Shown: piece after piece, positions 1 through 22,541 of the stretch
Layout: each line of letters starts with the position of its first letter
Position numbering within the stretch: position 1 is the stretch's first letter
Source: Euryarchaeota archaeon SM23-78
GTDB lineage: Archaea > Nanobdellota > Nanobdellia > Woesearchaeales > SM23-78
Assembly (NCBI GenBank): GCA_001595785.1
Contig: LSSJ01000022.1
Coordinates: forward strand, 21,957-53,956
DNA length: 32,000 nt
Reading direction: 5' to 3'
The notes under the pieces: model-generated
What the model was told of the DNA's origin: nothing
Databases searched by the model: none
What the model saw: only the letters and a program-made list of their open reading frames with translations
Program-made: the position numbers and the translations under genes

Positions 1-1342
1 ACCGTGTGTGCCCAGAATAATGATTATCATAATTAACTGTGGGATGACGGGTTCCATGCTTAAAGGTCATTTGAATGTTTCTTATATTGTATTGGTTGGT
101 GAGTCTGTTATAGTCAATAATCCTACCAGGGTTCTCCATAAAAAAGACATGGTAATATCTGTCAGGAGGAGCACGACCAGGTCTTGGAATGTTACTTGCT
201 TGAGCTATCTTAAAGGTAAGAGTGAGATTAAGTGCCCTTGTGGTAGCATCAAAGATGATTCGAGGTATTCTTAGAGGTCCAAAAGGCTGTTGCAAAGGAT
301 TATTATGACCATTATTAGGCTCTTCCTGTGTTGGAATGATAACCAGCCTTTCCTCTCCTTGGCCCCTTTGCTGCTTGCTAAGTATCACGTTGTGCAGGGC
401 TGTCTGGGTTGCTCCGGATAGCTGGGGCAAAGGGTCTGGGAATTCCAGCCTTGCTTGGTTGTAGCCGTCCTGTCCAGGACTGCGTATTTGCAAGTCTTCA
501 TTCATGGGCACTCCTGGGAACTCAAACCTGCCGTTAATGTTTTCAATGATTTGAGTGGTGGCATTTATGGTGTGGTCACCATTAATTCCTGGTATCGTAA
601 AGGTTAGACTAACATCATGCCCGTCAAGTCCTGTGCCGGTACCCCCTTCGTAAACCAGTTGAGCCCACTGCAGGGCTTGGTTATTGTTCCAGTGAGGAGG
701 TCTTGGAGCCTCTTCAGGGTTTAAGGTTGCTTTGTCAACAACTCTTCCTCTGAGGTCTCCGAACTGAGCTTGGAAAGTGATAGGATGATATTTCCATCTT
801 AGCTGTTCAAGATCTGTCTGTAATCGTCCAGCACCTGATGCTAATAAGCCGCTGCGAATCTGGTTTCTTATTCTTTTAATTCCATGCTTATCAAATTTAG
901 TGGTTAGGTCTGCAGCTCCCAGTGCAAGTACTGGTCCTTCAGGAACATTTGGATAATAATATTGAAAGGCTTGGGCTGTAAAGAAGCCGTTCTGGTTTAC
1001 TATGAAGGTTTCAGGTTCTCCAAAATAAACAATATCCTTTATTCCCAGGAAGATAGCTCTTACCTCTCCTGTTCCTTCATAGGGCTGCAGTGCTCTTCTG
1101 AACTCTTCAAAGGTTCTTGGATAACCAAGGGCATTGCTTGAAAGATTAGCATAAGAAGGAAGATTAATCTGCCTGTTTCTTGGATAAAGCCCTTTTGCAT
1201 TTGCTTCATCAAAAGCTGCTTTGCTCTCAAACAACCAGAGGCTTACAATGTATTCTCCATATTTCCTTCTAGCAGTATCATAGTGGCGGTCTCCTCTTCT
1301 AACAATATTCCTTGCAATCCACCTGGTGATTGGAAGCGCCAT
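1..1342 (-). CDS. large hypothetical protein, partial (C-terminus lies beyond the left window edge)
   Basis: Absent from the ORF track because it has no stop inside the window. ATG at 1342-1340 (minus). I translated all 447 codons down to position 2 without a stop (MALPITRWIARNIVRRGDRHYDTARRKYGEY...NYDNHYSGHTR). The ATG directly abuts the TAA of the upstream ORF (TAAATG). No family recognised. Confidence 0.6.
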   Translation of the reverse strand, partial: MALPITRWIARNIVRRGDRHYDTARRKYGEYIVSLWLFESKAAFDEANAKGLYPRNRQINLPSYANLSSNALGYPRTFEEFRRALQPYEGTGEVRAIFLGIKDIVYFGEPETFIVNQNGFFTAQAFQYYYPNVPEGPVLALGAADLTTKFDKHGIKRIRNQIRSGLLASGAGRLQTDLEQLRWKYHPITFQAQFGDLRGRVVDKATLNPEEAPRPPHWNNNQALQWAQLVYEGGTGTGLDGHDVSLTFTIPGINGDHTINATTQIIENINGRFEFPGVPMNEDLQIRSPGQDGYNQARLEFPDPLPQLSGATQTALHNVILSKQQRGQGEERLVIIPTQEEPNNGHNNPLQQPFGPLRIPRIIFDATTRALNLTLTFKIAQASNIPRPGRAPPDRYYHVFFMENPGRIIDYNRLTNQYNIRNIQMTFKHGTRHPTVNYDNHYSGHTR

Positions 1343-2032
1343 TTATGTAACCCTCACAGTTAAATCTGCATTACCATCAGGTCTGAACTCCAAGCAGTCA
1401 ACAGTTGGTTCAAAACCTTTAGCTTCATCTCCTGTTTGTAAAAGAGTGAAGGGAGGTAAGTCTGCATCCTTTTCAGGTTCTAGATATGTTGCTGTGTAAA
1501 AATAGGTACCTCCCTTTCTAAGGGTAGAAAAGTACTTTCTCACCCAAGGCTTCATAATGTGGTAGCCCTCTTTGTTAAGCTCAATAATAATATTACCGGC
1601 AGGAACACTGTGAAACTCAGCCACTCCATTATCATCAGTTCTGCCGACGTAAGGAGTTGAGATAACTGCAAGCTTGAACTTTCTTACAAACCAGTTCCAA
1701 CTCCTTTTTCCTTGTGTATAAATACTAACTTTTACTCCTGGAATACCTTTTCTATCAATGTTTTGTACTCTTATAATAACTCTTCCTGTGTGGCCTTCTG
1801 GGTGTTCAGGACGTGGCTCTCTGGGTTCTCTATTCCCCCCTCCTGTTCTTCTGTCTCTACCATCTCCTCCTCTATCCCTCTCATAATCATCTCCACCTCT
1901 TCCCCAGTTCCTAAAAAGACTTCCTCCTGTCACAAAATCAAGAATCTTAGCAATGATTAGAATCACAAGCAATATATATGTCCAGCTTACTATTGCTGCA
2001 TAAGCATTCACTACAAAGGTTTCTGCTACCAT
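1343..2032 (-). CDS. membrane-anchored protein with an N-terminal TM helix, a Gly/Arg/Asp-rich linker and a carboxypeptidase-regulatory-like beta-sandwich
   Basis: 229-aa ORF. TM segment is AIVSWTYILLVILIIAKIL. Low-complexity linker is GRGGDDYERDRGGDGRDRRTGGGNREPREPRP. The segment RVIIRVQNIDRKGIPGVKVSIY...TDDNGVAEFHSVPAGNIIIE resembles a CarboxypepD_reg fold. Its start overlaps the upstream ORF by 7 nt. Confidence 0.6.
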   Translation of the reverse strand: MVAETFVVNAYAAIVSWTYILLVILIIAKILDFVTGGSLFRNWGRGGDDYERDRGGDGRDRRTGGGNREPREPRPEHPEGHTGRVIIRVQNIDRKGIPGVKVSIYTQGKRSWNWFVRKFKLAVISTPYVGRTDDNGVAEFHSVPAGNIIIELNKEGYHIMKPWVRKYFSTLRKGGTYFYTATYLEPEKDADLPPFTLLQTGDEAKGFEPTVDCLEFRPDGNADLTVRVT

Positions 2033-2628
2033 TTCTTTTCAGCACCAGGTTTAAAGAATTTCTTAATCCAGGATTCTTTTATGAGCATGACCATGGGCAG
2101 ACCTACAAACAAGGCCCATTCGTCTAAGAGGAATAATAAGAGGAATAATAAGGCAAGGCCTAAGAGGTTTTTTAGCCAGCCTGACCTGTCATCCTCGCCT
2201 TTTTTCCTTAATACAAACATCGCAACCCAGCCTAATCCTATGAAGAAGCCTAGGAAGATTATTGAGCTCATTACTACTGTTATCAAGCCCCCAGTTGCTA
2301 GCAGCCATTCTGTTGGCATAAGAAGCACTCCTATTATGCTAAAAGCAAAGGATACTATGCCTGCTGTTTTATTGTCGAATATCTTGGTCTTTTTTAGAGC
2401 CATATTAGCCACTGCAAAGAGCACCACGAATAATATGAATTTTAGAAAGCCTTCTTGGACAAATGTATTTGAGCGCAGCACCTCTATGTTAAAGAGCCTG
2501 CCTATAGCTTCTATTCCTCTGTCGAGTGGACTTACTCCTGTTCTTCCATAAGCAAATACTTGAGGTATTAAAATTATCAATGATAGAGAATAAAATAAGT
2601 GCTTCACAGTGTTCTTTTTTATTTTCAT
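2026..2628 (-). CDS. polytopic membrane protein, unknown function
   Basis: 200-aa ORF with about 5 hydrophobic helices (LFYSLSLIILIPQVFA, FILFVVLFAVANMAL, IVSFAFSIIGVLLM, IIFLGFFIGLGWVAMFVL, LLGLALLFLLLFLL). It is co-directional with and overlaps the next ORF. Confidence 0.6.
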   Translation of the reverse strand: MKIKKNTVKHLFYSLSLIILIPQVFAYGRTGVSPLDRGIEAIGRLFNIEVLRSNTFVQEGFLKFILFVVLFAVANMALKKTKIFDNKTAGIVSFAFSIIGVLLMPTEWLLATGGLITVVMSSIIFLGFFIGLGWVAMFVLRKKGEDDRSGWLKNLLGLALLFLLLFLLDEWALFVGLPMVMLIKESWIKKFFKPGAEKKW

Positions 2629-2724
2629 TCTTTACAATCCTCTTCTTTGATATTATTCTTTATAAACTTTTCTTAAATTTATAATGATTACAATATTTCT
2701 CTGAATTCTTTTGATTTAAAAATC

Positions 2725-3003
2725 CTAATAGCCATGTTTCTTTTTAAACTCTTCAAATTCCATTTCCTTTTTCTCCCGAGGAACTTCAAGGCTTATCTTT
2801 TCAGTCACTCTGCTTTGCTTTAACAGCTTTTTCAGCTGCTTTTTCATGGAGGGCGTATTCCATGCAAGTATTTCTTTTAACTTAGGTCTTATTCTTCTTG
2901 AGAATACTCCTGTGGAGTCATTCAGGTTTCCGTCTAGTCTACCCTTGATTATTTCTAGTTCTTGATTGGTGAAGATGATTGAAACCCTGTTTTTTTTACC
3001 CAC
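2725..3003 (-). CDS. small basic protein, possibly ribbon-helix-helix DNA-binding
   Basis: 92-aa ORF with a GTG start. RVSIIFTNQELEIIKGRL...FSRRIRPKLKEIL fits a beta-strand/helix/helix pattern. It is the first gene of the minus-strand module. Confidence 0.4.
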   Translation of the reverse strand: MGKKNRVSIIFTNQELEIIKGRLDGNLNDSTGVFSRRIRPKLKEILAWNTPSMKKQLKKLLKQSRVTEKISLEVPREKKEMEFEEFKKKHGY

Positions 3004-3536
3004 ACTAAACTTAAATATATTTAAGTTTATAAATATTTTGATAAGCCAGTCCTCTACTCACTTTCTCGTCGGTTAATTTAGTAGGCTTTGTTAAGCAAAG
3101 AGGCAATATTTGAAACAGTTTGTATTGGCTTATGACCTAAGCTGAAATTTTTTCTTCAGTTATTAATAACCTAAAGGTTTTTAGAAATTTTATTACTCAT
3201 ATCATTTAAGATCTTTAGTTTATCCTAGAACTCATGTTTTTTACTCTAATTTTATTCTTAGGGCCTTTTTTTGTGAATCTCATGATTTTTGTTTTGGAGG
3301 TTATTTTTCTATATTGATATACGCGTCTAATGATAACATGAGCTGGCTAACCTCGTGGTTTTATGCTTGGAAGAACTCTTTTTGTGCTTACAGAAAGCCT
3401 TGACCTAGTGCTTAGCATATTACCGCGCGGTTTTTAGCTATTTACGTCTATTTTTTGAAATTTATTTTTTTAATTTATTATTTTTTTGCAAAATTTTTTT
3501 CAAAAAATAAAAAATTTTGGGGGTTTGTTTTTAATT

Positions 3537-3550: not shown

Positions 3551-3618
3551 ATATTACTTATACTATTCATTGTTTAAACTATAAGTTGCTTGTAGTATAT
3601 ATTGTTTAATATATATAT

Positions 3619-4032
3619 TTGATAACCAATAAGTATTTAAAAATTAAGATTCAGTTTTTTCGTGTGGCAAAAAAGACAGAAAAAATACGGGACGACTCGG
3701 ACTACTTGGAGTTGAAGGGGTTTTTATCTTTTCTAATTTTGCATGAATTAAGCCTTAAAAGGCTCTGTGGCGATGAGCTTTCCAACAACATTGGTAAACG
3801 CAAAGGTAGTTCTCTTACCCCCGGGACAATCTATCCTGCTTTAAAGAGACTCAGAAAAAAAAAGCTCATCGCTTACAGACGCCAAGGCAGGAAAAAGGTC
3901 TATACATTAACAGAAATCGGTAGAGAGGAGCTTGAGAGGCTTTATATGTTGTTTAGTAATTATTTTTATGGTTTGAAGCATAAGATTAAGCGTAAGCCAG
4001 TGAAAAAGAAGGGCGGAAAAAGAAAGCCATAG
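3619..4032 (+). CDS. PadR-family winged-helix transcriptional regulator
   Basis: LKGFLSFLILHELSLKRLCGDELSNNI...LTPGTIYPALKRLRKKKLIAY...KVYTLTEIGREELERL matches the PadR wHTH pattern. The start is uncertain: the track uses TTG at 3619, and an in-frame GTG near 3664 is equally plausible. Confidence 0.7.
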   Translation: MITNKYLKIKIQFFRVAKKTEKIRDDSDYLELKGFLSFLILHELSLKRLCGDELSNNIGKRKGSSLTPGTIYPALKRLRKKKLIAYRRQGRKKVYTLTEIGREELERLYMLFSNYFYGLKHKIKRKPVKKKGGKRKP

Positions 4033-5574: not shown

Positions 5575-6390
5575 ATGCTTAAAAAACTTGAAACAGAGCT
5601 TAAGATAAGGGGTTTTAGCCCTGAAACTGTAAAGGCCTATATAAGGCATAACAAGGCTTTTCTGGGTTTTATTAAGAAAAAGCCTGATGCTGCGTCTGAA
5701 GAGGACTTAAAGGCGTATCTGGCTTTTCTTGTCTCTGACAAGAAGCTTTCTTCAAGTTCAGTTGCTCTTGTTAGGTCTGCTCTTTTATTCTTCTATAACC
5801 AGGTGCTTGATAAAGGTTTTTCTGGTATAAAAACCCCTAAGATTCAGAGAAATACTCCTGAGGTGCTTTCAAAAGAAGAGGTTAAGGCTCTTTTAAATGC
5901 TTGTGTTAATGAGAAGAGCAGGCTGCTTATAGAGTTTCTTTATTCTTCAGGATTAAGGGTTAGTGAGTGCCTTGCTTTGAAAGTTGAGGATATTGATTTT
6001 AATGAAAGGGTTTGTGTTGTTAGGCAGGGTAAGGGCAAGAAGGATAGGGTTACCGTGCTTTCTGATAGCCTTGCTCAGCGTCTTAAGGGTTTTCTTGAAA
6101 AGCAGGGCTTTTCTTCTGGCTTGATTTTTAGGAATAAGAAGGAAGAAGTCTTGTCTGCTAGGAATGCTCAGAAGATTGTTTCTGGTGCTGCTAAGCGTGC
6201 TGGTATTAGTAAAAAGGTGACTCCGCACAAGCTTAGGCACAGTTTTGCTACGCATCTGCTTGACTCTGGTGTTAGTATCAGGGTTATTCAGGAATTATTG
6301 GGTCATTCTAATCTTCAGACCACTCAGATTTATACTCATGTTTCCAGGGATCATATTAAGCGTGTGAAGAGTCCTCTCGACGATTTATGA
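5575..6390 (+). CDS. tyrosine recombinase, XerA/XerC/XerD-like
   Basis: N-terminal SAM-like domain (RGFSPETVKAYIRHNKAFLGFI). Catalytic signature is GLRVSE...HKLRHSFATHLL...LLGHSNLQTTQIYTHV (R..HxxR..H..Y). Confidence 0.85.
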   Translation: MLKKLETELKIRGFSPETVKAYIRHNKAFLGFIKKKPDAASEEDLKAYLAFLVSDKKLSSSSVALVRSALLFFYNQVLDKGFSGIKTPKIQRNTPEVLSKEEVKALLNACVNEKSRLLIEFLYSSGLRVSECLALKVEDIDFNERVCVVRQGKGKKDRVTVLSDSLAQRLKGFLEKQGFSSGLIFRNKKEEVLSARNAQKIVSGAAKRAGISKKVTPHKLRHSFATHLLDSGVSIRVIQELLGHSNLQTTQIYTHVSRDHIKRVKSPLDDL

Positions 6391-6619
6391 GGGTTTTTTT
6401 CTTTTTATCTTTCTGTTTTTGCTATATTTTGTTTGTGTAAAACTTTTAGTCATTTATTATAATTTATATTTATTGGTTATCCTATATATAGATTATGCAA
6501 TACTAAAGTTTTCTATCAAAGACTAAAAGTTATATTATATATTATAAAATATATTTTGAAGTATTTCTAAAACTTTTAAGCAATGATTAAATTAAAAATT
6601 ATAAAAAATTTTAGTAAAT

Positions 6620-8131: not shown

Positions 8132-8575
8132 ATGCTAGATAAAAAAAGAGTAGGGGTGGGCTGCGGAGTAATGCTTCTAAAAGATAACAAAGTACTTCTT
8201 GGCAAGAGGCATGAAGACCCAAACAAAGCTGATTCTGAGTTGCATGGAGAAGGGACATGGACAATGCCTGGCGGTAAACTACACTACGGAGAAACCTTTG
8301 AGGAGTGTGCAAGAAGAGAAGTAAGAGAAGAGACAGGAATAAAGCTGAACAAGATAAGAGTGATGTGTGTGAACAATGACAAGAACGAGTACGCCCACTT
8401 TGTAACCATAGGCTTGTTCTCAGATGATTTTGAAGGCGAACCCAAAGTGATGGAGCCAGATGAGATAACAGAGTGGAAATGGTTTGACATAAACAAAGTG
8501 CCTAAGAATATGTTCTTCCCAAGCGCAAGAATGCTAGAGGACTATAAGAAAAAGGTTTTCTATCAAAAGAAATAA
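8132..8575 (+). CDS. NUDIX hydrolase
   Basis: Complete Nudix box GGKLHYGETFEECARREVREETGI (GX5EX7REUXEEXGU). Confidence 0.85.
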   Translation: MLDKKRVGVGCGVMLLKDNKVLLGKRHEDPNKADSELHGEGTWTMPGGKLHYGETFEECARREVREETGIKLNKIRVMCVNNDKNEYAHFVTIGLFSDDFEGEPKVMEPDEITEWKWFDINKVPKNMFFPSARMLEDYKKKVFYQKK

Positions 8576-8578
8576 AGA

Positions 8579-8615
8579 GTCCTCGCCCCCGGGCTGGAAG
8601 TTATGCTACAAGTCC
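8579..8615 (-). repeat. diverged copy (A) of the ~38-nt motif derived from the tRNA-Tyr 3' end
   Basis: GTCCTCGCCCCCGGGCTGGAAGTTATGCTACAAGTCC. It has the same block spacing as copies B and C: CCCGG core, 2 nt, a 10-nt block (6/10 identical), 6 nt, then AGTCC. Confidence 0.5.
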
Positions 8616-8717
8616 TGACAGATCTAGCGCGATAATGGTAGGAATAACATAATTCTCTTTGGTTATTATTCCTCAAATTAGAAAATTATTTAAACATTAA
8701 TTCTATAAAACTTAGGT

Positions 8718-9737
8718 ATGAAAATAAACACGGTATTACTCCTACTAATCGTTCTTTGTTTTTTGCTGACAGCCTGCACAAAGTCTGAAGATTTGTCTGT
8801 AAGAGGATCAACTGAAAATCAAGTCTCAGAAGAAAAATACGATGAGCAAGTGCAGGAAACTCCGAGCGCTTCAGAGCAAACCCAAACAAGTCCTGCTGAG
8901 CCAGACCAAGCAGAACCTGCTCAACCAGCTTTACCTGCTCCAAGCTCGAATTGCGACAGTGAGGCTCAGCCTGAAAAAGATGATTGCTACACTAAACTAG
9001 CGCAAAATACCTCAAATTCTGCTTTTTGTGACAAAATCAGTGATTCAAAGAAAAAAAATTATTGTTACTCTAACCTAATTTTAAGAGGACTGGTGGATGC
9101 TGAACTGTGCAATAGATTATCTGAAACCTTCTATTATAAGGAGTTATGCTACTCTAAGTTGGCAGAAAAAAATTCTGACCCTGGTTTTTGTGACAAAATT
9201 AGTGATATTAGTATAAAAGACACTTGTTTTGATGTGGTTGCCAGAGCAAGAGAAGATGCTAATCTTTGTGATAAATTATCAGATTCATATGCTTTTAAAC
9301 CTACTTGCTATTCTTTAATTGCAGCAAAGAAGCAAGACGTATCAATTTGCAACAAAATACAGACAGGCGATGCTACATCAACTCCCCAAGAGAACAAAGA
9401 CGATTGCCTGGCCGGTGTTGCTTGGATGAATGGAGATATAAACATTTGTGAAAGGATTGTTACACAAAGTTCAAAAGATCACTGTTATAGCGGAGTTGCA
9501 CGAATGCTAAATAATTCTGATATTTGCTTAACAATATCTACGTCTCTTGCAAAAGCAAGTTGTTTAGCAACTGTTGCTATACGCCTAGATGATCCTTCAA
9601 TTTGCCAGAAAGGTTCTAAAACTGAAATAATCGATGATTGTTATAGTACCATCGTCATGGGCACTAAAAATAATATTGCATTATGCGATAACATACGAGA
9701 TGAAAGTAAAAGAAGGGTATGCAAATTGTATGCTTAA
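8718..9737 (+). CDS. secreted lipoprotein with about 9-10 tandem Cys-pair repeats
   Basis: Signal peptide plus lipobox (LLLLIVLCFLLTAC). A Q/E/P-rich linker follows. Repeats have the form C-[DN]-[KR]-[IL]-S-x6-8-C-[YF]-x3-[AIV], for example CDKISDSKKKNYCYSNL, CDKISDISIKDTCFDVVA and CDKLSDSYAFKPTCYSLIA. Near-identical nucleotide repeats start at about 9019 and 9185. Confidence 0.7.
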   Translation: MKINTVLLLLIVLCFLLTACTKSEDLSVRGSTENQVSEEKYDEQVQETPSASEQTQTSPAEPDQAEPAQPALPAPSSNCDSEAQPEKDDCYTKLAQNTSNSAFCDKISDSKKKNYCYSNLILRGLVDAELCNRLSETFYYKELCYSKLAEKNSDPGFCDKISDISIKDTCFDVVARAREDANLCDKLSDSYAFKPTCYSLIAAKKQDVSICNKIQTGDATSTPQENKDDCLAGVAWMNGDINICERIVTQSSKDHCYSGVARMLNNSDICLTISTSLAKASCLATVAIRLDDPSICQKGSKTEIIDDCYSTIVMGTKNNIALCDNIRDESKRRVCKLYA

Positions 9738-9792
9738 AGCGTATGCAACTGGCTAATTAATAAGAAAAAATTAACTAGCGAGGTGTTATATT

Positions 9793-10236
9793 ATGCAAAG
9801 ACCAAAATTTGTATGGGCAGTAACAATAGTTAGTGTTTTAGGTTTTCTTTTGATGATAGTCAATTTTATCAAGGGAATAACTTCTACAGTCACAACAAGA
9901 GGCGCTCCTGTTCTTATGACTCAGAAGATTTTCTTTGTGGCTTATCTAATACTTGGAGTGTTAGGCATGTTCTTTATCTATAATCTTTTTATGCTTAAGA
10001 GAGATAAAAGCAAACTATGGAACAACATAGTCGCACTGGGTGCATTAATCCTGACTGTATTCGGAATTTTGCATGATAGTGAGGTTATGGGAGTTCTTTC
10101 TGATTCTTCGCAGCAAGTTCTTATACAATCATATGCATACCCTGCTATAGTTGTTGGATTTGTTTACTTACTAATGATTCTTTTGTTTTGGAACATATTC
10201 AGGAAATATTTAAACAAGAGCAAATCATTTTCTTAA
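9793..10236 (+). CDS. four-TM membrane protein, unknown function
   Basis: 147-aa ORF with 4 hydrophobic helices, preceded by SD-like GAGGTG. Confidence 0.6.
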   Translation: MQRPKFVWAVTIVSVLGFLLMIVNFIKGITSTVTTRGAPVLMTQKIFFVAYLILGVLGMFFIYNLFMLKRDKSKLWNNIVALGALILTVFGILHDSEVMGVLSDSSQQVLIQSYAYPAIVVGFVYLLMILLFWNIFRKYLNKSKSFS

Positions 10237-10355
10237 GATTTGCTTTTGCTTCAGATATTTGAAACATAATCATTCAATTTCAATCCTCTCAAAATGCAAT
10301 CCCGGCATATAATAACATATGAAAAACACGTTTTGTCGTCAATAAAATAGAAAAT

Positions 10356-10393
10356 AGTCCCCGCGCCCGGATGGATAGTTTTGGTAGAAGTCC
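10356..10393 (-). repeat. copy (B) of the tRNA-Tyr 3'-end motif, a candidate att remnant
   Basis: AGTCCCCGCGCCCGGAT (10356-10372) is 17/17 identical to 12235-12251, which covers the T-loop end, T-stem 3' strand, acceptor 3' strand, discriminator and 2 nt of flank of tRNA-Tyr. It is followed by GGATAGTTTT-N6-AGTCC, shared with copy C. Confidence 0.7.
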
Positions 10394-10399
10394 CCCAAA

Positions 10400-11125
10400 C
10401 TATTTCTTTTGAGCCAATAGAATCATATTGACATGTACAGGATTGTGAGTAAAATGATATAATCCTCTTTTTACTTCTTTATCCAACAAAGAAATGAATG
10501 CTATATCAAAACCTTGTTTTTTAAATGCCTCAGTAAACTCTCGATGATGCTTATGATAATTATAGGTGTTAAAAAAATGTCCTTGATTTGTGAAGAAGAA
10601 AATTCCATTTGGTTTTAGTATCCTATTAATTTCATTGGCGTACTCATCAATAGTTGGTCGAATTGGTTGAAATTCTTCTGGAGTTGTCCTTACAATTTTA
10701 TCAGTAATCATGTGGTTGTGTATTTCTGTAAAATAATTATCCTCAAAAGGATAAGGCAAATCTTTAGCATCCCATGGAAAGAAAACTGATTGAATACCAT
10801 CGTTATTTGTTTCTTGTTTTATGAGTTTTTCTTTAGCAAAATCCCTATACCAAAAAGGTTTGGTTGTGTCAGGCCTATATTCTGGTTTGTCTTTTCCCAT
10901 TAATTCTAAGCCATCTCTGTCAGCGTTTTCCCAATATGTACTTAAATCAAAGTAATAACTCATTCCTCTATAAGTAATCTCAATCTGCCTCCCCTTCAAG
11001 TATTCTTTTAGATTTCTAAGAATTGGAGCATGCTCTGGTCCTATCTCTAATGCAACAATATGGTCAAGTTTATTTCTTTCCTGTGTAAAATAATCATTCA
11101 GAGTTTTTTTAAGTAAAAATACCAT
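10400..11125 (-). CDS. class I SAM-methyltransferase-like protein with a degenerate glycine loop
   Basis: VALEIGPEHAP resembles motif I, DAKDLPYPFEDNYFTEI resembles motif II, and EINRILKPNGIFFF resembles the post-II motif. The assignment is tentative. Confidence 0.5.
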   Translation of the reverse strand: MVFLLKKTLNDYFTQERNKLDHIVALEIGPEHAPILRNLKEYLKGRQIEITYRGMSYYFDLSTYWENADRDGLELMGKDKPEYRPDTTKPFWYRDFAKEKLIKQETNNDGIQSVFFPWDAKDLPYPFEDNYFTEIHNHMITDKIVRTTPEEFQPIRPTIDEYANEINRILKPNGIFFFTNQGHFFNTYNYHKHHREFTEAFKKQGFDIAFISLLDKEVKRGLYHFTHNPVHVNMILLAQKK

Positions 11126-11199
11126 AATATCTACCTAAACTTCTAAATAAGAACTGATTTAAAAAAGTTTCGTTTTGTAACCACTGTAAAATAATAAAT

Positions 11200-11236
11200 A
11201 TCCCTACGCCCGGGCGGATAGTTTTCATTCAAGTCC
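11200..11236 (-). repeat. copy (C) of the tRNA-Tyr 3'-end motif
   Basis: ATCCCTACGCCCGGGCGGATAGTTTTCATTCAAGTCC. It shares the CGCCCGG, GGATAGTTTT and AGTCC blocks with copy B at identical spacing. Confidence 0.6.
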
Positions 11237-11285
11237 TGAAAAATAAGGTAGTGTCATTTCGTGAGAAATTAATCTGGTTATAATC

Positions 11286-12161
11286 TTACCACTTTGGAAT
11301 CTTACCATTCTGCACTGTAGACCAATATGTATCATTAATGACACCGTCAGAAATGGTCAAATACCATTTTTTAAGATATTCGGATTTCTTTCTAAGAACG
11401 GTATCACTATCAATCCTTCGCTTATAGTCATTACTATATAACAGTTCAACAGTGCCTGCAATATCCTCACCAATACTATGTGTACAATAGTTGTTAAAAA
11501 ATCCAGGAGGTGTTGAGGGGAGTGACTTCCATGTTGAGGAATTATAAACGGCATCAGGGTGAAGTGCCCTCCATTCTTCTTTAGGAATATCCTGAGTTAA
11601 TATATGGGCAAGTTCATGATGAAAACTTTTATTCTCAAAAATAGTTCCGAGAACAGCATGATGGTACCTGAGCCATTCATCCCTTCCGGCACTAATTGAC
11701 ATGCCACCCCAGAAAGTCACATAAGCAACAGGTGTTGCACCTTGCTTCATAATCTCTTCTGTACTATATGTATAAGCTCGCACAATCTCAACCTTTTGCA
11801 GATGCTTCTGAAGCAATTCCTTAGGATAATAGCGCATTGCTTCTTCTAACCCCTCCAAAGCCTTTAACGACATATACGGAGAATGAGATCTAAGGCCAGA
11901 TTTTTTGATGAGCGGAGGACTCGGTCTGCCAAATCCTACAAGAGTGGGTTCACTCCAAACATCTATCTCAAGATGATATGTATCTGAGAGAGTTTGCTCA
12001 AGCTGAGTTATATTATTTTCAATTTTTCCTCTTCTTAAGCAATCTTGGCTTGTTACATATAGATGAGGACCAAAGGCAAGTGCTCCGGCTAAAATTGTTC
12101 CAGTTATAATTTTTCCTTTATGCCTTTTTGCTTTTTGGAACATATCTTTTAATCTTAACAT
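11286..12161 (-). CDS. membrane-anchored HExxH zinc-metalloprotease-like protein
   Basis: I trimmed the start to the ATG at 12161 because the track ORF (to 12317) runs into tRNA-Tyr. It has an N-terminal TM segment (IITGTILAGALAFGP) and the motif FHHELAHILT. Confidence 0.6.
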   Translation of the reverse strand: MLRLKDMFQKAKRHKGKIITGTILAGALAFGPHLYVTSQDCLRRGKIENNITQLEQTLSDTYHLEIDVWSEPTLVGFGRPSPPLIKKSGLRSHSPYMSLKALEGLEEAMRYYPKELLQKHLQKVEIVRAYTYSTEEIMKQGATPVAYVTFWGGMSISAGRDEWLRYHHAVLGTIFENKSFHHELAHILTQDIPKEEWRALHPDAVYNSSTWKSLPSTPPGFFNNYCTHSIGEDIAGTVELLYSNDYKRRIDSDTVLRKKSEYLKKWYLTISDGVINDTYWSTVQNGKIPKW

Positions 12162-12236
12162 TTTAATATCCCCATTACAAGGGCAGTTTAACTTTATAAA
12201 TCTTTCGATTATTTTACTACTTACAAGAAGTGAAAG

Positions 12237-12358
12237 TCCCCGCGCCCGGATTTGAACCAGGAACCTTTCGGGAACAGCTGGTCGTGTATCATTTCTAGCC
12301 AGTCGGCTTCTCAACACGACATCTACAGCCGAACGCTCTGCCGTTGAGCTACGCGGGG
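12237..12358 (-). tRNA. tRNA-Tyr(GUA): tRNA-Tyr(GUA) with a ~50-nt anticodon-loop intron
   Basis: Minus strand reads CCCCGCG-TA-GCTC-AACGGCA-GAGC-G-TTCGG-CTGTAG[intron]CCGAA-AGGTT-CCTGG-TTCAAAT-CCGGG-CGCGGGG-A. C1-G72 is the archaeal/eukaryal Tyr identity pair. The intron contains a 7-bp helix GTCGTGT/ACACGAC. Confidence 0.85.
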
Positions 12359-14832: not shown

Positions 14833-15019
14833 TGGGGCTGCGAGGACTCTCAGAGAAACTGCAGATCAGTTTTTCTTTTGAACCCCGGTCACCAGCTGTT
14901 CGTTTCATTGATAAGCATATACAGGCATGCTTTTCTCGCAAACCCCGAGCTGGGATGATGGTTGCTCCAAGCAACCTCAAAAACTGAGGTTTTTGTTGGC
15001 CAAGCTACACTACAGCCCC
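14833..15019 (-). tRNA. tRNA-Pro: tRNA-Pro (NGG, most likely GGG or CGG) with three introns
   Basis: Minus strand 5' part is GGGGCTG-TA-GTGT-AGCTTGGCCA-ACA... The 3' part is GCTGG-TGAC-CGGGG-TTCAAA[30-nt intron]T-CCTCG-CAGCCCC-A. The gene is 187 nt for a ~74-nt tRNA. The T-loop intron fits a bulge-helix-bulge motif (TTCA/TGAG helix, bulges AA|A and AG|T). The best anticodon arm is CCAGC/GCTGG with loop TCGGGG|intron|A. Other registers or hairpins give CGG or TGG, which are all Pro. Confidence 0.65.
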
Positions 15020-15043
15020 GTTTTATGGAAGAAATAGTATTGG

Positions 15044-19385: not shown

Positions 19386-19531
19386 AGCCCTGTAGTGTAG
19401 TGGCCAAATCATTGAAGGCTAATCATTTCGGATTTTGGAGGCAATCCAAGCCGAGAATGTCCGAAGACCTCGGTTCGAAATGTCGAAGAAGCAGAGTACG
19501 CGGTCTTCAAGCGAAAGTCCGAGCAGGGCTA
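19386..19531 (+). tRNA. tRNA-Gln(UUG): tRNA-Gln(UUG) with three introns (D-loop/D-stem junction, 37/38, T-loop 59/60)
   Basis: AGCCCTG-TA-GTGT-AGTGGCCAA[~15 nt, 19408-19422]TCAT-T-TCGGA-TTTTGG[20 nt, 19439-19458]G-TCCGA-AGAC-CTCGG-TTCGAA[38 nt, 19480-19517]T-CCGAG-CAGGGCT-A. It has the A1-U72 pair typical of archaeal tRNA-Gln. All three introns can be drawn as bulge-helix-bulge motifs (central helices GGCC/GGCT, TTTT/GAGA, TTCG/CGAA). Confidence 0.75.
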
Positions 19532-19621
19532 TCTTATACTTCTGTCCGTTTTAAAGGAACATTTCAACTTGATTTGAAACTTTCGGAATATTTATAAAAT
19601 ACATAAGGCAAATAACTTATC

Positions 19622-20131
19622 ATGGAGCTAAAAGTCACAGTCAAGATATTGTTGATTATCTTAGTAGCAATCGCAGGAATTCTCTCACTTTTAAGATTAT
19701 TTGGTATCTGGATGATAACATGGGGAGCGATATTTCATTTAGTGCTCATTATCTGGGTTCCTTTAGTTATAATTATACTAGGCCCATTCTTTCTTAGGAA
19801 ACTGATAAAACGGTTTTTTGCACCTAGATGGATTAGTGTAATCCTCTTTTTTGTGATACTAGCATTACTCTTTCTTATTGAGATAGTTCCTTTTAGAATA
19901 TCAATAAATTGTGTTTTCCCCCCATGCGGGTATGTGACCACAGCAGTATCAGCATATACAGTCTTTTCATATCTATCCAGCTATCCAGAACATCTTAAGA
20001 CATGGGCTACCCCTTTCACCTTTCCAGTAATAATGCTTGAGATACTTGCAGCGTTTTTGCTGAGCAAAGCAGGAGCATGGCTGGTTGGAAAAATTAAAGC
20101 CAAGCTCTCTGAAAGGACAAAACCAAGCTAG
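19622..20131 (+). CDS. polytopic membrane protein, unknown function
   Basis: 169-aa ORF with about 5 hydrophobic helices. Confidence 0.6.
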   Translation: MELKVTVKILLIILVAIAGILSLLRLFGIWMITWGAIFHLVLIIWVPLVIIILGPFFLRKLIKRFFAPRWISVILFFVILALLFLIEIVPFRISINCVFPPCGYVTTAVSAYTVFSYLSSYPEHLKTWATPFTFPVIMLEILAAFLLSKAGAWLVGKIKAKLSERTKPS

Positions 20132-20158
20132 CCTCCAAGCGGGGCTACTATTTTTAAA

Positions 20159-21664: not shown

Positions 21665-22541
21665 ACCACAATCTTATATAACCAATTTATAATGAAGCAA
21701 TCTTTTTTTATTAGAAATTATGAATTCCCACAAAGGAGGCTTAGTTTATGGGAATTATAATTTCAAAAAATAAAAAAAGAGAATGCTTATCTTTTATTAA
21801 ATCAAACTTCAACAAGATTTCTCAAAGACAAATGGCAAAGATTTTAGGCCTGGGTAAAACAAGTGTAAACAGATGGTCTAAAGAGTTGGATTTAAAATTT
21901 AAAAAACACACTGTAAATGAGAAATTCTTTGATAAATGGAGTGAAAAATCTGCTTATATCTTAGGGTTGATTTTTTCTGATGGAAATATTAATTATAATA
22001 CAAAAAAAGGGTATTGTGCTATTACAATAACTGCTGCTGAAAAAGATAAAGAACACTTAGAGAGAATTAGAAAACTTTTATCAAGTACAAAACCTCTTCT
22101 TTTCTCATCAAAGACAAAGTCTTATAGGTTAATAATAAACAGTAAATACATGTGCTTAAATTTATTGAAATTAGGACTTACTCCAAAAAAATCCTTAACT
22201 TTAGACTTTCCTACGATTCCAAAGAGTTTCTTAAAAGATTTTGTTCGTGGAGTTATTGATGGAGATGGAAATGTGAGGTATCTCTCTCGAAAAAGAAGCC
22301 CTTATTTTGAAATCACTGTTGCTTCTGGTTCAAAAAAATTTTGTGAAGGATTTGTAAAAGTCGTTAAAGATGCGATTGGTGTTGATGCGAATATAAGAAA
22401 AGCAAAAACAAACACATTTATAATTCAATATTCCTGTTCTAGAGGAGAAAAGCTTGCAAAATATATTTATTCTAACGCAACTATTTTCTTAAAAAGGAAA
22501 TATCTGCCATATAAAGAAAATGTATTAGGAGGTAAGTAAAA
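21665..22541 (+). mobile_element. free-standing homing-endonuclease gene insertion between the metK relic and the intact metK
   Basis: The interval is bounded by the end of relic homology (21664) and the metK ATG (22542). It contains only the LAGLIDADG ORF with its own SD (AGGAGG, 8-nt spacer). Confidence 0.55.
21748..22539 (+). CDS. LAGLIDADG (double-motif) homing endonuclease with an N-terminal HTH
   Basis: The two motifs are [12 protein letters not shown] and [12 protein letters not shown], about 100 aa apart. The N-terminal HTH is [24 protein letters not shown]. Confidence 0.85.

Follow-up and report, generated by a model that had tools for sequence, protein, structure and literature searches.

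Small gene cassettes probably accreted at the 3′ end of a tRNA-Tyr gene in a DPANN-like archaeon

Genes and repeats at the tRNA-Tyr locus

Between a tRNA-Tyr gene and a NUDIX gene of Euryarchaeota archaeon SM23-78 lie three small cassettes of one or two genes, each ending in a copy of a repeat built on the 3′ end of the tRNA. The locus is part of a stretch of 32,000 nucleotides from contig LSSJ01000022.1 (positions 21,957 to 53,956), which is termed the window and to which all coordinates refer. The G+C content of the window is low, about 36%, and the nearest homologues of its proteins carry the label Candidatus Woesearchaeota, a DPANN lineage. The tRNA-Tyr(GTA) gene was found on the minus strand at 12358..12237 (Rfam RF00005, 53.9 bits) and contains a 53-nt intron at 37/38. 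This gene is the putative integration target (attB, now attL). ARAGORN in default mode called no tRNA in the window, because the tRNA genes here contain introns. The NUDIX gene (8132..8575, plus strand; Pfam NUDIX) appears to be the ancestral neighbour of tRNA-Tyr, and adjoins the tRNA in two related loci described below.

The end of the tRNA gene forms a 17-bp core, consisting of tRNA positions 59-73 followed by 'CT' (12235..12251, minus strand). This 17-mer, AGTCCCCGCGCCCGGAT, is present exactly twice in the window, at 12235-12251 and at 10356-10372, and no occurrence was expected from 100 shuffles. The second copy is the core of motif A (10356..10372, minus strand) and matches the tRNA end in 17/17 positions. 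Two degenerate cores were also found on the minus strand: motif B (GCCCGGGCGTAGGGATA; 11199..11215) retains 12/17 positions, and motif C (8578..8594), which lies 3 nt from the NUDIX stop codon, retains 13/17. A preliminary description of this DNA had reported the recurrence at 10356-10372, the start of the tRNA-derived part at position 59, and diverged copies near 11200 and 8579; the first two points were reproduced, and the diverged copies were recovered as members of one repeat family. Thus, the insert is flanked by direct repeats of the tRNA 3′ segment, with an intact tRNA-Tyr gene at one end, as is found in tRNA-targeted elements. The 'CT' that follows the discriminator base is outside the tRNA, yet it is present in most copies.

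The repeat is longer than its tRNA-derived part. A repeat search defined a 45-nt family with three copies, at 8580-8624 (C), 10358-10402 (A) and 11201-11245 (B), spaced 1778 and 843 nt apart. The sites are related over about 43 bp, comprising a 26-bp arm common to the copies and a copy of the last 15 tRNA bases. When the copies were anchored on the tRNA-derived part and the 26 nt upstream (in tRNA sense) were matched, A and B agreed in 18/26 positions, B and C in 18/26, and A and C in 15/26 (binomial P of 8e-6, 8e-6 and 9e-4 respectively). The arm of each copy matched the tRNA body in 3-4/26 positions only. Both 10373-10393 and 11216-11236 match GGATAGTTTT-N6-AGTCC exactly, and the copy at 8579 has GGAAGTTATG-CTACA-AGTCC, aligned without gaps in the same register. 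The extension absent from the tRNA, previously described as common to all three copies, is therefore exact in A and B and present in C as a diverged version, related and not identical. In the alignment the common blocks are GGACTT, AAAAC and CC, with the consensus GGACTT-N5-AAAAC-N3-CC. As a separate observation, GGACT opens and closes each motif (GGGGACT in copy A), 33-34 nt apart (8578-8624, 10356-10398 and 11199-11241). A further conserved arm ('P arm') on the side of each cassette nearer to the tRNA was considered and rejected, since only the E2 flank and the E1 flank of locus L118 were significantly similar, and other pairs were not.

The motif copies divide the region into three cassettes, in agreement with the preliminary description. 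Cassette E2 (11216..12234, minus strand) contains an open reading frame (ORF; 11286-12161) for an HExxH metallopeptidase-like protein, which has its own TATA-like upstream region, and ends in the arm of motif B (11216-11241). Cassette E1 (10373..11198, minus strand) contains an ORF for a 241-aa methyltransferase-like protein (10400-11125) and ends in the arm of motif A (10373-10398). Cassette E3 (8595..10355, minus strand), bounded by cores A and C, codes for a Cys-repeat lipoprotein (8718-9737) and a 147-aa membrane protein (9793-10236), both on the plus strand, and ends in the arm of motif C (8595-8620). The unit sizes are 1,778 bp for E3, 843 bp for E1 and 1,036 bp for E2. The E3 lipoprotein contains internal Cys-containing repeats of about 40-65 aa with 29-49% identity, as revealed by tblastx self-matches.

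The gene labels given earlier stand with different firmness. The HExxH protein displayed weak matches to Peptidase_Mx1 and to an HExxH lipoprotein family, as a protease-like label would have it. Matches of the 241-aa protein to Methyltransf_11 were all sub-threshold, yet consistent over its family, so that the methyltransferase-like label holds at that level. A word-indexed search of 5.8e9 clustered proteins returned only three homologues of the 241-aa protein, all of them encoded behind tRNA-Tyr and followed by arm and core. An exhaustive profile search of 1.8e9 proteins added about 20 more remote relatives; several of these match Methyltransf_11, one above the cutoff, and the 241-aa protein is therefore regarded as methyltransferase-like. 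On these sequence comparisons, the family is predicted to be a divergent class I methyltransferase-like protein and not a recombinase. A PDB sequence search with the 241-aa protein gave matches only at E>0.1, and its AlphaFold model (predicted local distance difference test score 48) was too poor for a fold search.

As had been noted before, the cassettes carry no integrase: the five cassette proteins had no recombinase family match in Pfam, NCBIfam or PHROGs, and an element-encoded integrase is thus missing from every cassette. In addition, no relatives of the cassette cargo were found in the viral contigs searched, and BLASTN of the region against phage and plasmid records gave no match.

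Empty and partly filled sites in related genomes

Related loci were fetched by means of a conserved 482-aa gene upstream of tRNA-Tyr, and the upstream synteny is kept in all of them. Two loci, L120 (69% identity) and L121 (71%), are empty: tRNA-Tyr is separated from the NUDIX stop codon by a gap of only 5 or 3 nt. In BLASTN alignments, the tRNA 3′ end of both loci aligns to the window tRNA and also to the motif C core (8592..8580), continuing into NUDIX. The window therefore has an insertion of 3,657 bp placed precisely at the end of the tRNA, and motif C marks where tRNA and NUDIX originally met. The breakpoints of the empty sites thus fall at the repeat. Beyond NUDIX, L120 contains genes for a methyltransferase, XerA and PadR in the same order as the window; in L121, NUDIX and the methyltransferase gene are separated by an additional 237-aa gene, and the contig stops there.

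Two further loci are partly filled. L118 and L119, in which the two non-identical homologues of the 241-aa protein are encoded (79% and 62% aa identity respectively), contain only the 241-aa cassette, followed by arm and core. E2 is absent from both, and the 241-aa gene comes directly after tRNA-Tyr. Their homology to the window runs from the motif B core (11213) to the motif A core (10363 and 10356 respectively), past which the window, L118 and L119 diverge, so that the distal neighbours of E1 are different in each. E1 is therefore a discrete unit in three lineages, with its homology limited by the two cores. The flank after motif B is homologous to the flank downstream of the tRNA in L118 and L119, and motif B is accordingly the old tRNA end, displaced by the entry of E2. 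No counterpart of E3 was found at any of the relatives' loci compared. The preliminary description had expected relatives to show variable cassette content bounded by the motif, and such loci were found, two of them empty and two with E1 only.

Homologues of the HExxH gene in L124-L126 share its promoter and terminator-hairpin regions and lack the arm and core. By these sequences, the arm is thus a module attached to the cargo and not a native flank of the HExxH gene. The distal core also varies with the local tRNA: the window has CGCGGGG and L119 has G(G)CGGGG, in each case as in the locus's own acceptor stem.

Signs of continuing recombination

A Logan contig, L007 (SRR6208352), covers exactly 12251..10356, that is, from the first base of one core to the last base of the other. 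The neighbouring Logan contig, L017, ends at 12222 and overlaps L007 by 30 nt. In a k=31 graph, a single extra junction leading from arm(A) through the core to the start of E2 explains both breaks, as the contig ends imply. Such a junction corresponds to a circular or tandem form of a 1,879-bp E2+E1 unit; an empty-site junction would instead predict a break of the tRNA contig at 12235. This evidence for recombination is indirect but specific, and current activity is possible.

Other contig ends were seen close to motif B: in three further samples, contigs stop at most 80 nt from it, and two of them do so at 11239/11240, precisely where the arm has its outer edge. The Logan break is located at 11239, and Joint Genome Institute (JGI) contigs have a 79-nt overlap at 11175/11253. 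The sole single-nucleotide polymorphism of L007 is at 11233, within GGACTT of the arm. Recombination between TCAGGACTTG of motifs B and C was rejected as the origin of the breaks at 11239, since the same Logan contig is unbroken through motif C. Homopolymer-length variation was similarly rejected, as it predicted the wrong position.

Interpretation of the array

Repeats with a common arm, relatives with empty and partly filled sites, and cassettes that code for no recombinase are observed directly. The 3.66-kb stretch between tRNA-Tyr and NUDIX is probably an accretion array, formed by repeated site-specific recombination at the tRNA 3′ end. Successive integrations at this end, with the extension serving as the attP arm, had been proposed in the preliminary description, and the proposal is supported by the empty and partly filled relatives and by homology that is bounded by the cores. 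The site behind tRNA-Tyr thus probably marks a hot spot of site-specific gene gain.

Under this accretion reading, each incoming unit would carry an attP in which the ~26-bp arm adjoins a copy of tRNA positions 59-73. An intact tRNA would be restored by integration, and the earlier tRNA end, fused to the arm of the unit, would be shifted further downstream. The order of integration would be E3, then E1, then E2. We infer that strand exchange takes place inside the 17-bp identity, with its left edge in the T-loop, a sublocation that is usual for integrases targeting tRNA 3′ ends (PMC8371274). Since none of the units encodes a recombinase, they would be non-autonomous and moved in trans by an enzyme encoded elsewhere, which is assumed by analogy to be a tyrosine integrase. 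E2 and E1 together are bounded by the only perfect 17-bp pair, with motif A as the presumed attR, and probably still recombine as one 1,879-bp composite.

Several points weigh against this reading. No recombinase is tied to the site, and the arm is conserved to only about 62% among orthologous copies, barely over neutral, with the blocks GGACTT and AAAAC as exceptions. With their degenerate cores, B and C at least are probably dead junctions. Motif B is nearest to the tRNA and would be expected to be the youngest, but it is more decayed than A, and the reading therefore needs the assumption of a composite unit; an E2+E1 composite in which B is an internal fossil would be the simplest answer to this paradox. 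The circle or tandem junction comes from contig ends, not from reads. Four long contigs from different samples all contain the same array, and another arrangement was not seen directly. The recurrence of one array in four independent long contigs does indicate that it is not an assembly artefact.

Some of these points would also suit dead relics, namely three larger integrase-carrying elements of one family that entered at tRNA-Tyr and were later trimmed by deletions to one or two useful genes, so that nothing moves today. The degenerate B and C cores, the lack of an integrase and the identity of the array in the four contigs are all in line with such an origin, and DPANN genomes are streamlined. 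It is nevertheless unlikely. E1 is equally compact, with a 75-nt leader, ORF, arm and core, in three lineages at 62-79% protein identity, and must therefore have been without an integrase for long. There is no pseudogene debris, and the pair around E2+E1 has remained 17/17 while the inner copy decayed. The repeat-to-repeat contig L007 would also be hard to account for, and the core co-varies with the local tRNA in L119.

A very improbable alternative is an integron-like platform run by a host recombinase, with the tRNA-Tyr 3′ end acting as attI. A tyrosine recombinase, XerA, is encoded outside the cassettes at 5575..6390 on the plus strand (NF040815, 278 bits against a cutoff of 220), and lies 2-6 kb from the tRNA in the window and in L120. 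Against the integron-integrase subfamily model it reached 232 bits, in a match split in two stretches; the cutoff of that model is 265. The recombinase is thus a XerA equivalog and not an adjacent IntI with the IntI-specific additional domain. L118 contains E1 but has no XerA within 10 kb; conversely, L120 has XerA in the same position but its site is empty. XerA appears to be a housekeeping enzyme, and nothing links it to the cassettes, because it also adjoins an empty site. In addition, the gene has what looks like its own dif-like site, an AT-rich palindrome about 80 nt downstream (6471-6502) that is unlike the arm and core and has a counterpart in the same place in L120. The motif also lacks the attC-like fold of an integron site: no consensus structure or covariation was found for it, and its fold energies, including those as single-stranded DNA, were no better than those of shuffles (z -1.5 to +1.3). 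Without a hairpin, the site is neither attC-like nor terminator-like. The 'integron-like logic' of the preliminary description is therefore apt as an analogy of logic only, and the features that would make the array an integron are absent.

The copies of the motif are confined to the tRNA-Tyr locus in the sequence searched. A motif profile run with nhmmer on ~34 kb from this genome and on loci of relatives totalling ~170 kb found no copies beyond those behind tRNA-Tyr. A generic terminator or repetitive extragenic palindromic (REP)-like element, which the preliminary description had named as a result that would undo its proposal, would be dispersed; no such copies, and no hairpin, were found within this range. 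Pattern scans of IMG/VR for the arm and the 17-mer, and of GTDB representative genomes, gave chance matches only. The same was true of the searchable metagenome set, where the negative is weak, as the organism's known JGI contigs did not turn up there and it is apparently absent from the set. It is scarcely credible that the motif instead serves downstream of genes as a signal at the level of RNA or transcription, whether as a terminator, a processing site, a 3′ tag resembling a tRNA or the 3′ half of a split tRNA. Motifs A and B do come after the stop codons of co-oriented genes, a tRNA 3′ segment lies within the motif and the organism has many tRNA introns, but besides the lack of a fold and of dispersed copies, motif C has the wrong orientation for the genes of its cassette, the motif edges are synteny breakpoints in relatives, and tRNA-Tyr is complete, so that a split or permuted half is not needed. 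The arm shows no conserved pairing.

tRNA introns and a second locus at tRNA-Gln

A similar arrangement was found at tRNA-Gln (19386..20147, plus strand). The tRNA-Gln(TTG) gene (19386-19531) was called by ARAGORN after removal of three introns, one of which lies between positions 59 and 60. Introns at 59/60 had been described earlier for both tRNA-Gln and tRNA-Pro; the former is thus backed by ARAGORN, and tRNA-Pro (~15020..14833) was read by eye only. A 169-aa membrane ORF (19622-20131) follows tRNA-Gln, and 2 nt past it is a 12/14 copy of the tRNA-Gln 3′ exon (TCCGAGCAGGGCTA; 20134-20147), for which 0.13 occurrences were expected by chance per window. The copy is located 11 nt ahead of a Metallophos gene, and the duplicated segment is exactly the 3′ exon. 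In L118 and L114, the Metallophos gene comes directly after tRNA-Gln and the 169-aa ORF is lacking; in L113, a different 235-aa gene is found there. No convincing Tyr-type arm accompanies the tRNA-Gln copy. This locus appears to be a second integrase-less insertion of a similar kind, with a single gene.

In work on tRNA gene disruption by mobile elements, which includes the Randau and Soll hypothesis, att sites are proposed to be linked to intron positions, and mismatches between attP and attB are reported to pass to the rebuilt tRNA (PMC3293823). The displaced tRNA-Gln copy retains the acceptor base of the L114 tRNA-Gln, and the tRNA-Gln of the window has a compensated pair (6-67). This base difference fits the reported inheritance of attP/attB mismatches in rebuilt tRNAs (PMC3293823). 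The tRNA-Tyr gene of L118 is interrupted at 59/60 by a 31-nt intron, which enters the core 1 nt past its left edge, and the distal copy there is down to 13/17.

The introns of tRNA-Tyr vary among close relatives. The window gene has the 37/38 intron only, L118 adds the 59/60 intron that splits the att core, and L114, L119 and L120 have an added T-arm intron of ~80-110 nt. These tRNA-Tyr genes are located at 11950-12104 in L118, 11615-11834 in L114, 11510-11736 in L120 and 12-265 in L119. The anticodon introns are of two unrelated types with a mosaic distribution among relatives. The arm showed no similarity to the introns at 59/60 in tRNA-Tyr (L118), tRNA-Gln or tRNA-Pro. A LAGLIDADG/homing-endonuclease-like ORF of 263 aa (21748-22539) lies directly upstream of the S-adenosylmethionine synthetase gene of the window and is not there in L113 and L114.

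Other repeats were seen on the far side of NUDIX. A second dif-like copy, inverted, of 37 nt and 84% identity, is located at 3600-3636, upstream of the PadR gene, and the two dif-like copies bracket PadR, three small ORFs and xerA over 2.8 kb. Homology to L120 ends at ~3449, next to the second copy. Positions 1-3449, with 1.9 kb more in contig L008, contain six ORFs of 92-546 aa that have no Pfam or PHROG match, and the G+C content is higher (0.41-0.45). This region may be another inserted element.

Relation to known systems

The array is best read as a stack of very small non-autonomous cassettes, bounded by att sites, at a tRNA gene of a DPANN-like archaeon, and it resembles the cis-mobilizable elements (CIMEs) of bacteria and not an integron. 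CIMEs and accretion arrays of elements of the integrative and conjugative (ICE) and integrative and mobilizable (IME) types occur at tRNA genes of Firmicutes, where they are att-flanked and in tandem, and where the integrase of a related element presumably moves them in trans (PMC5704250; PMC6323972). Similarly, the units of the window are flanked by attL and attR, contain no recombination or transfer genes, and appear stacked by successive integration at one site. In contrast to CIMEs, they have an archaeal host, are much smaller, with one or two genes in 0.84-1.8 kb, and have no known cognate autonomous element; E1, in addition, is retained in its minimal form across lineages.

Partial tRNA copies also mark successive integrations of tRNA-targeted elements of archaea and bacteria, such as those of the pNOB8/SSV type and the tycheposons of Prochlorococcus (PMC8371274; bioRxiv 10.1101/2020.12.28.424599). 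These likewise integrate at the 3′ part of a tRNA, which is restored, and newer elements push older ones outward. However, they carry their own integrase and often replication genes, as no unit in the window does, and the three units with unrelated cargo share one short conserved arm beside the tRNA-derived core. At the tRNA-Thr locus of Caldiarchaeum, a natural archaeal population has a tRNA fragment at a distance of 1.8 kb from the intact gene (PMC3293823). A recombinase is encoded in that insert and the duplicated piece is a 5′ fragment, whereas the window has duplicated 3′ fragments, no recombinase and a whole tRNA.

Integron cassettes, including those of archaeal integrons, are small, mostly single-gene units without a recombinase of their own (PMC9668308). 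The cassettes described here share with them an unrelated cargo, a related recombination site in which each unit ends and an array at one insertion point. Unlike integrons, the window lacks an IntI with its additional domain and a folded attC hairpin, and insertion is at the 3′ end of a tRNA. In addition, the cassettes appear to have their own promoters, and one of them is inverted.

Implications for gene gain in DPANN archaea

A more far-reaching proposal is that Woesearchaeota-like DPANN archaea possess an integron-like cassette system, in which tRNA 3′ ends capture single-gene units of ~1 kb by way of a ~43-bp site of arm and tRNA end. A host or helper recombinase would move these units, the system would be a main route of gene gain, and the 59/60 edge of the site would be tied to the 59/60 introns. 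At present this is a long shot. If it were true, 59/60 introns would either arise from att recombination or restrict it. The L118 intron in the edge of the core and the copy of the tRNA-Gln 3′ exon bear on the older idea, lacking direct evidence, that tRNA introns and att sites interact (PMC3293823).

The ~43-bp site is short enough for a direct test as a recombination substrate, and the window and its relatives provide empty, half-filled and full sites, in addition to a hint of a circular form. To our knowledge, few mobile elements have been described in DPANN archaea, which have tiny genomes, and how they gain genes is poorly understood. Minimal integrase-less cassettes anchored at a tRNA would offer a concrete and testable route of gene gain in these archaea.

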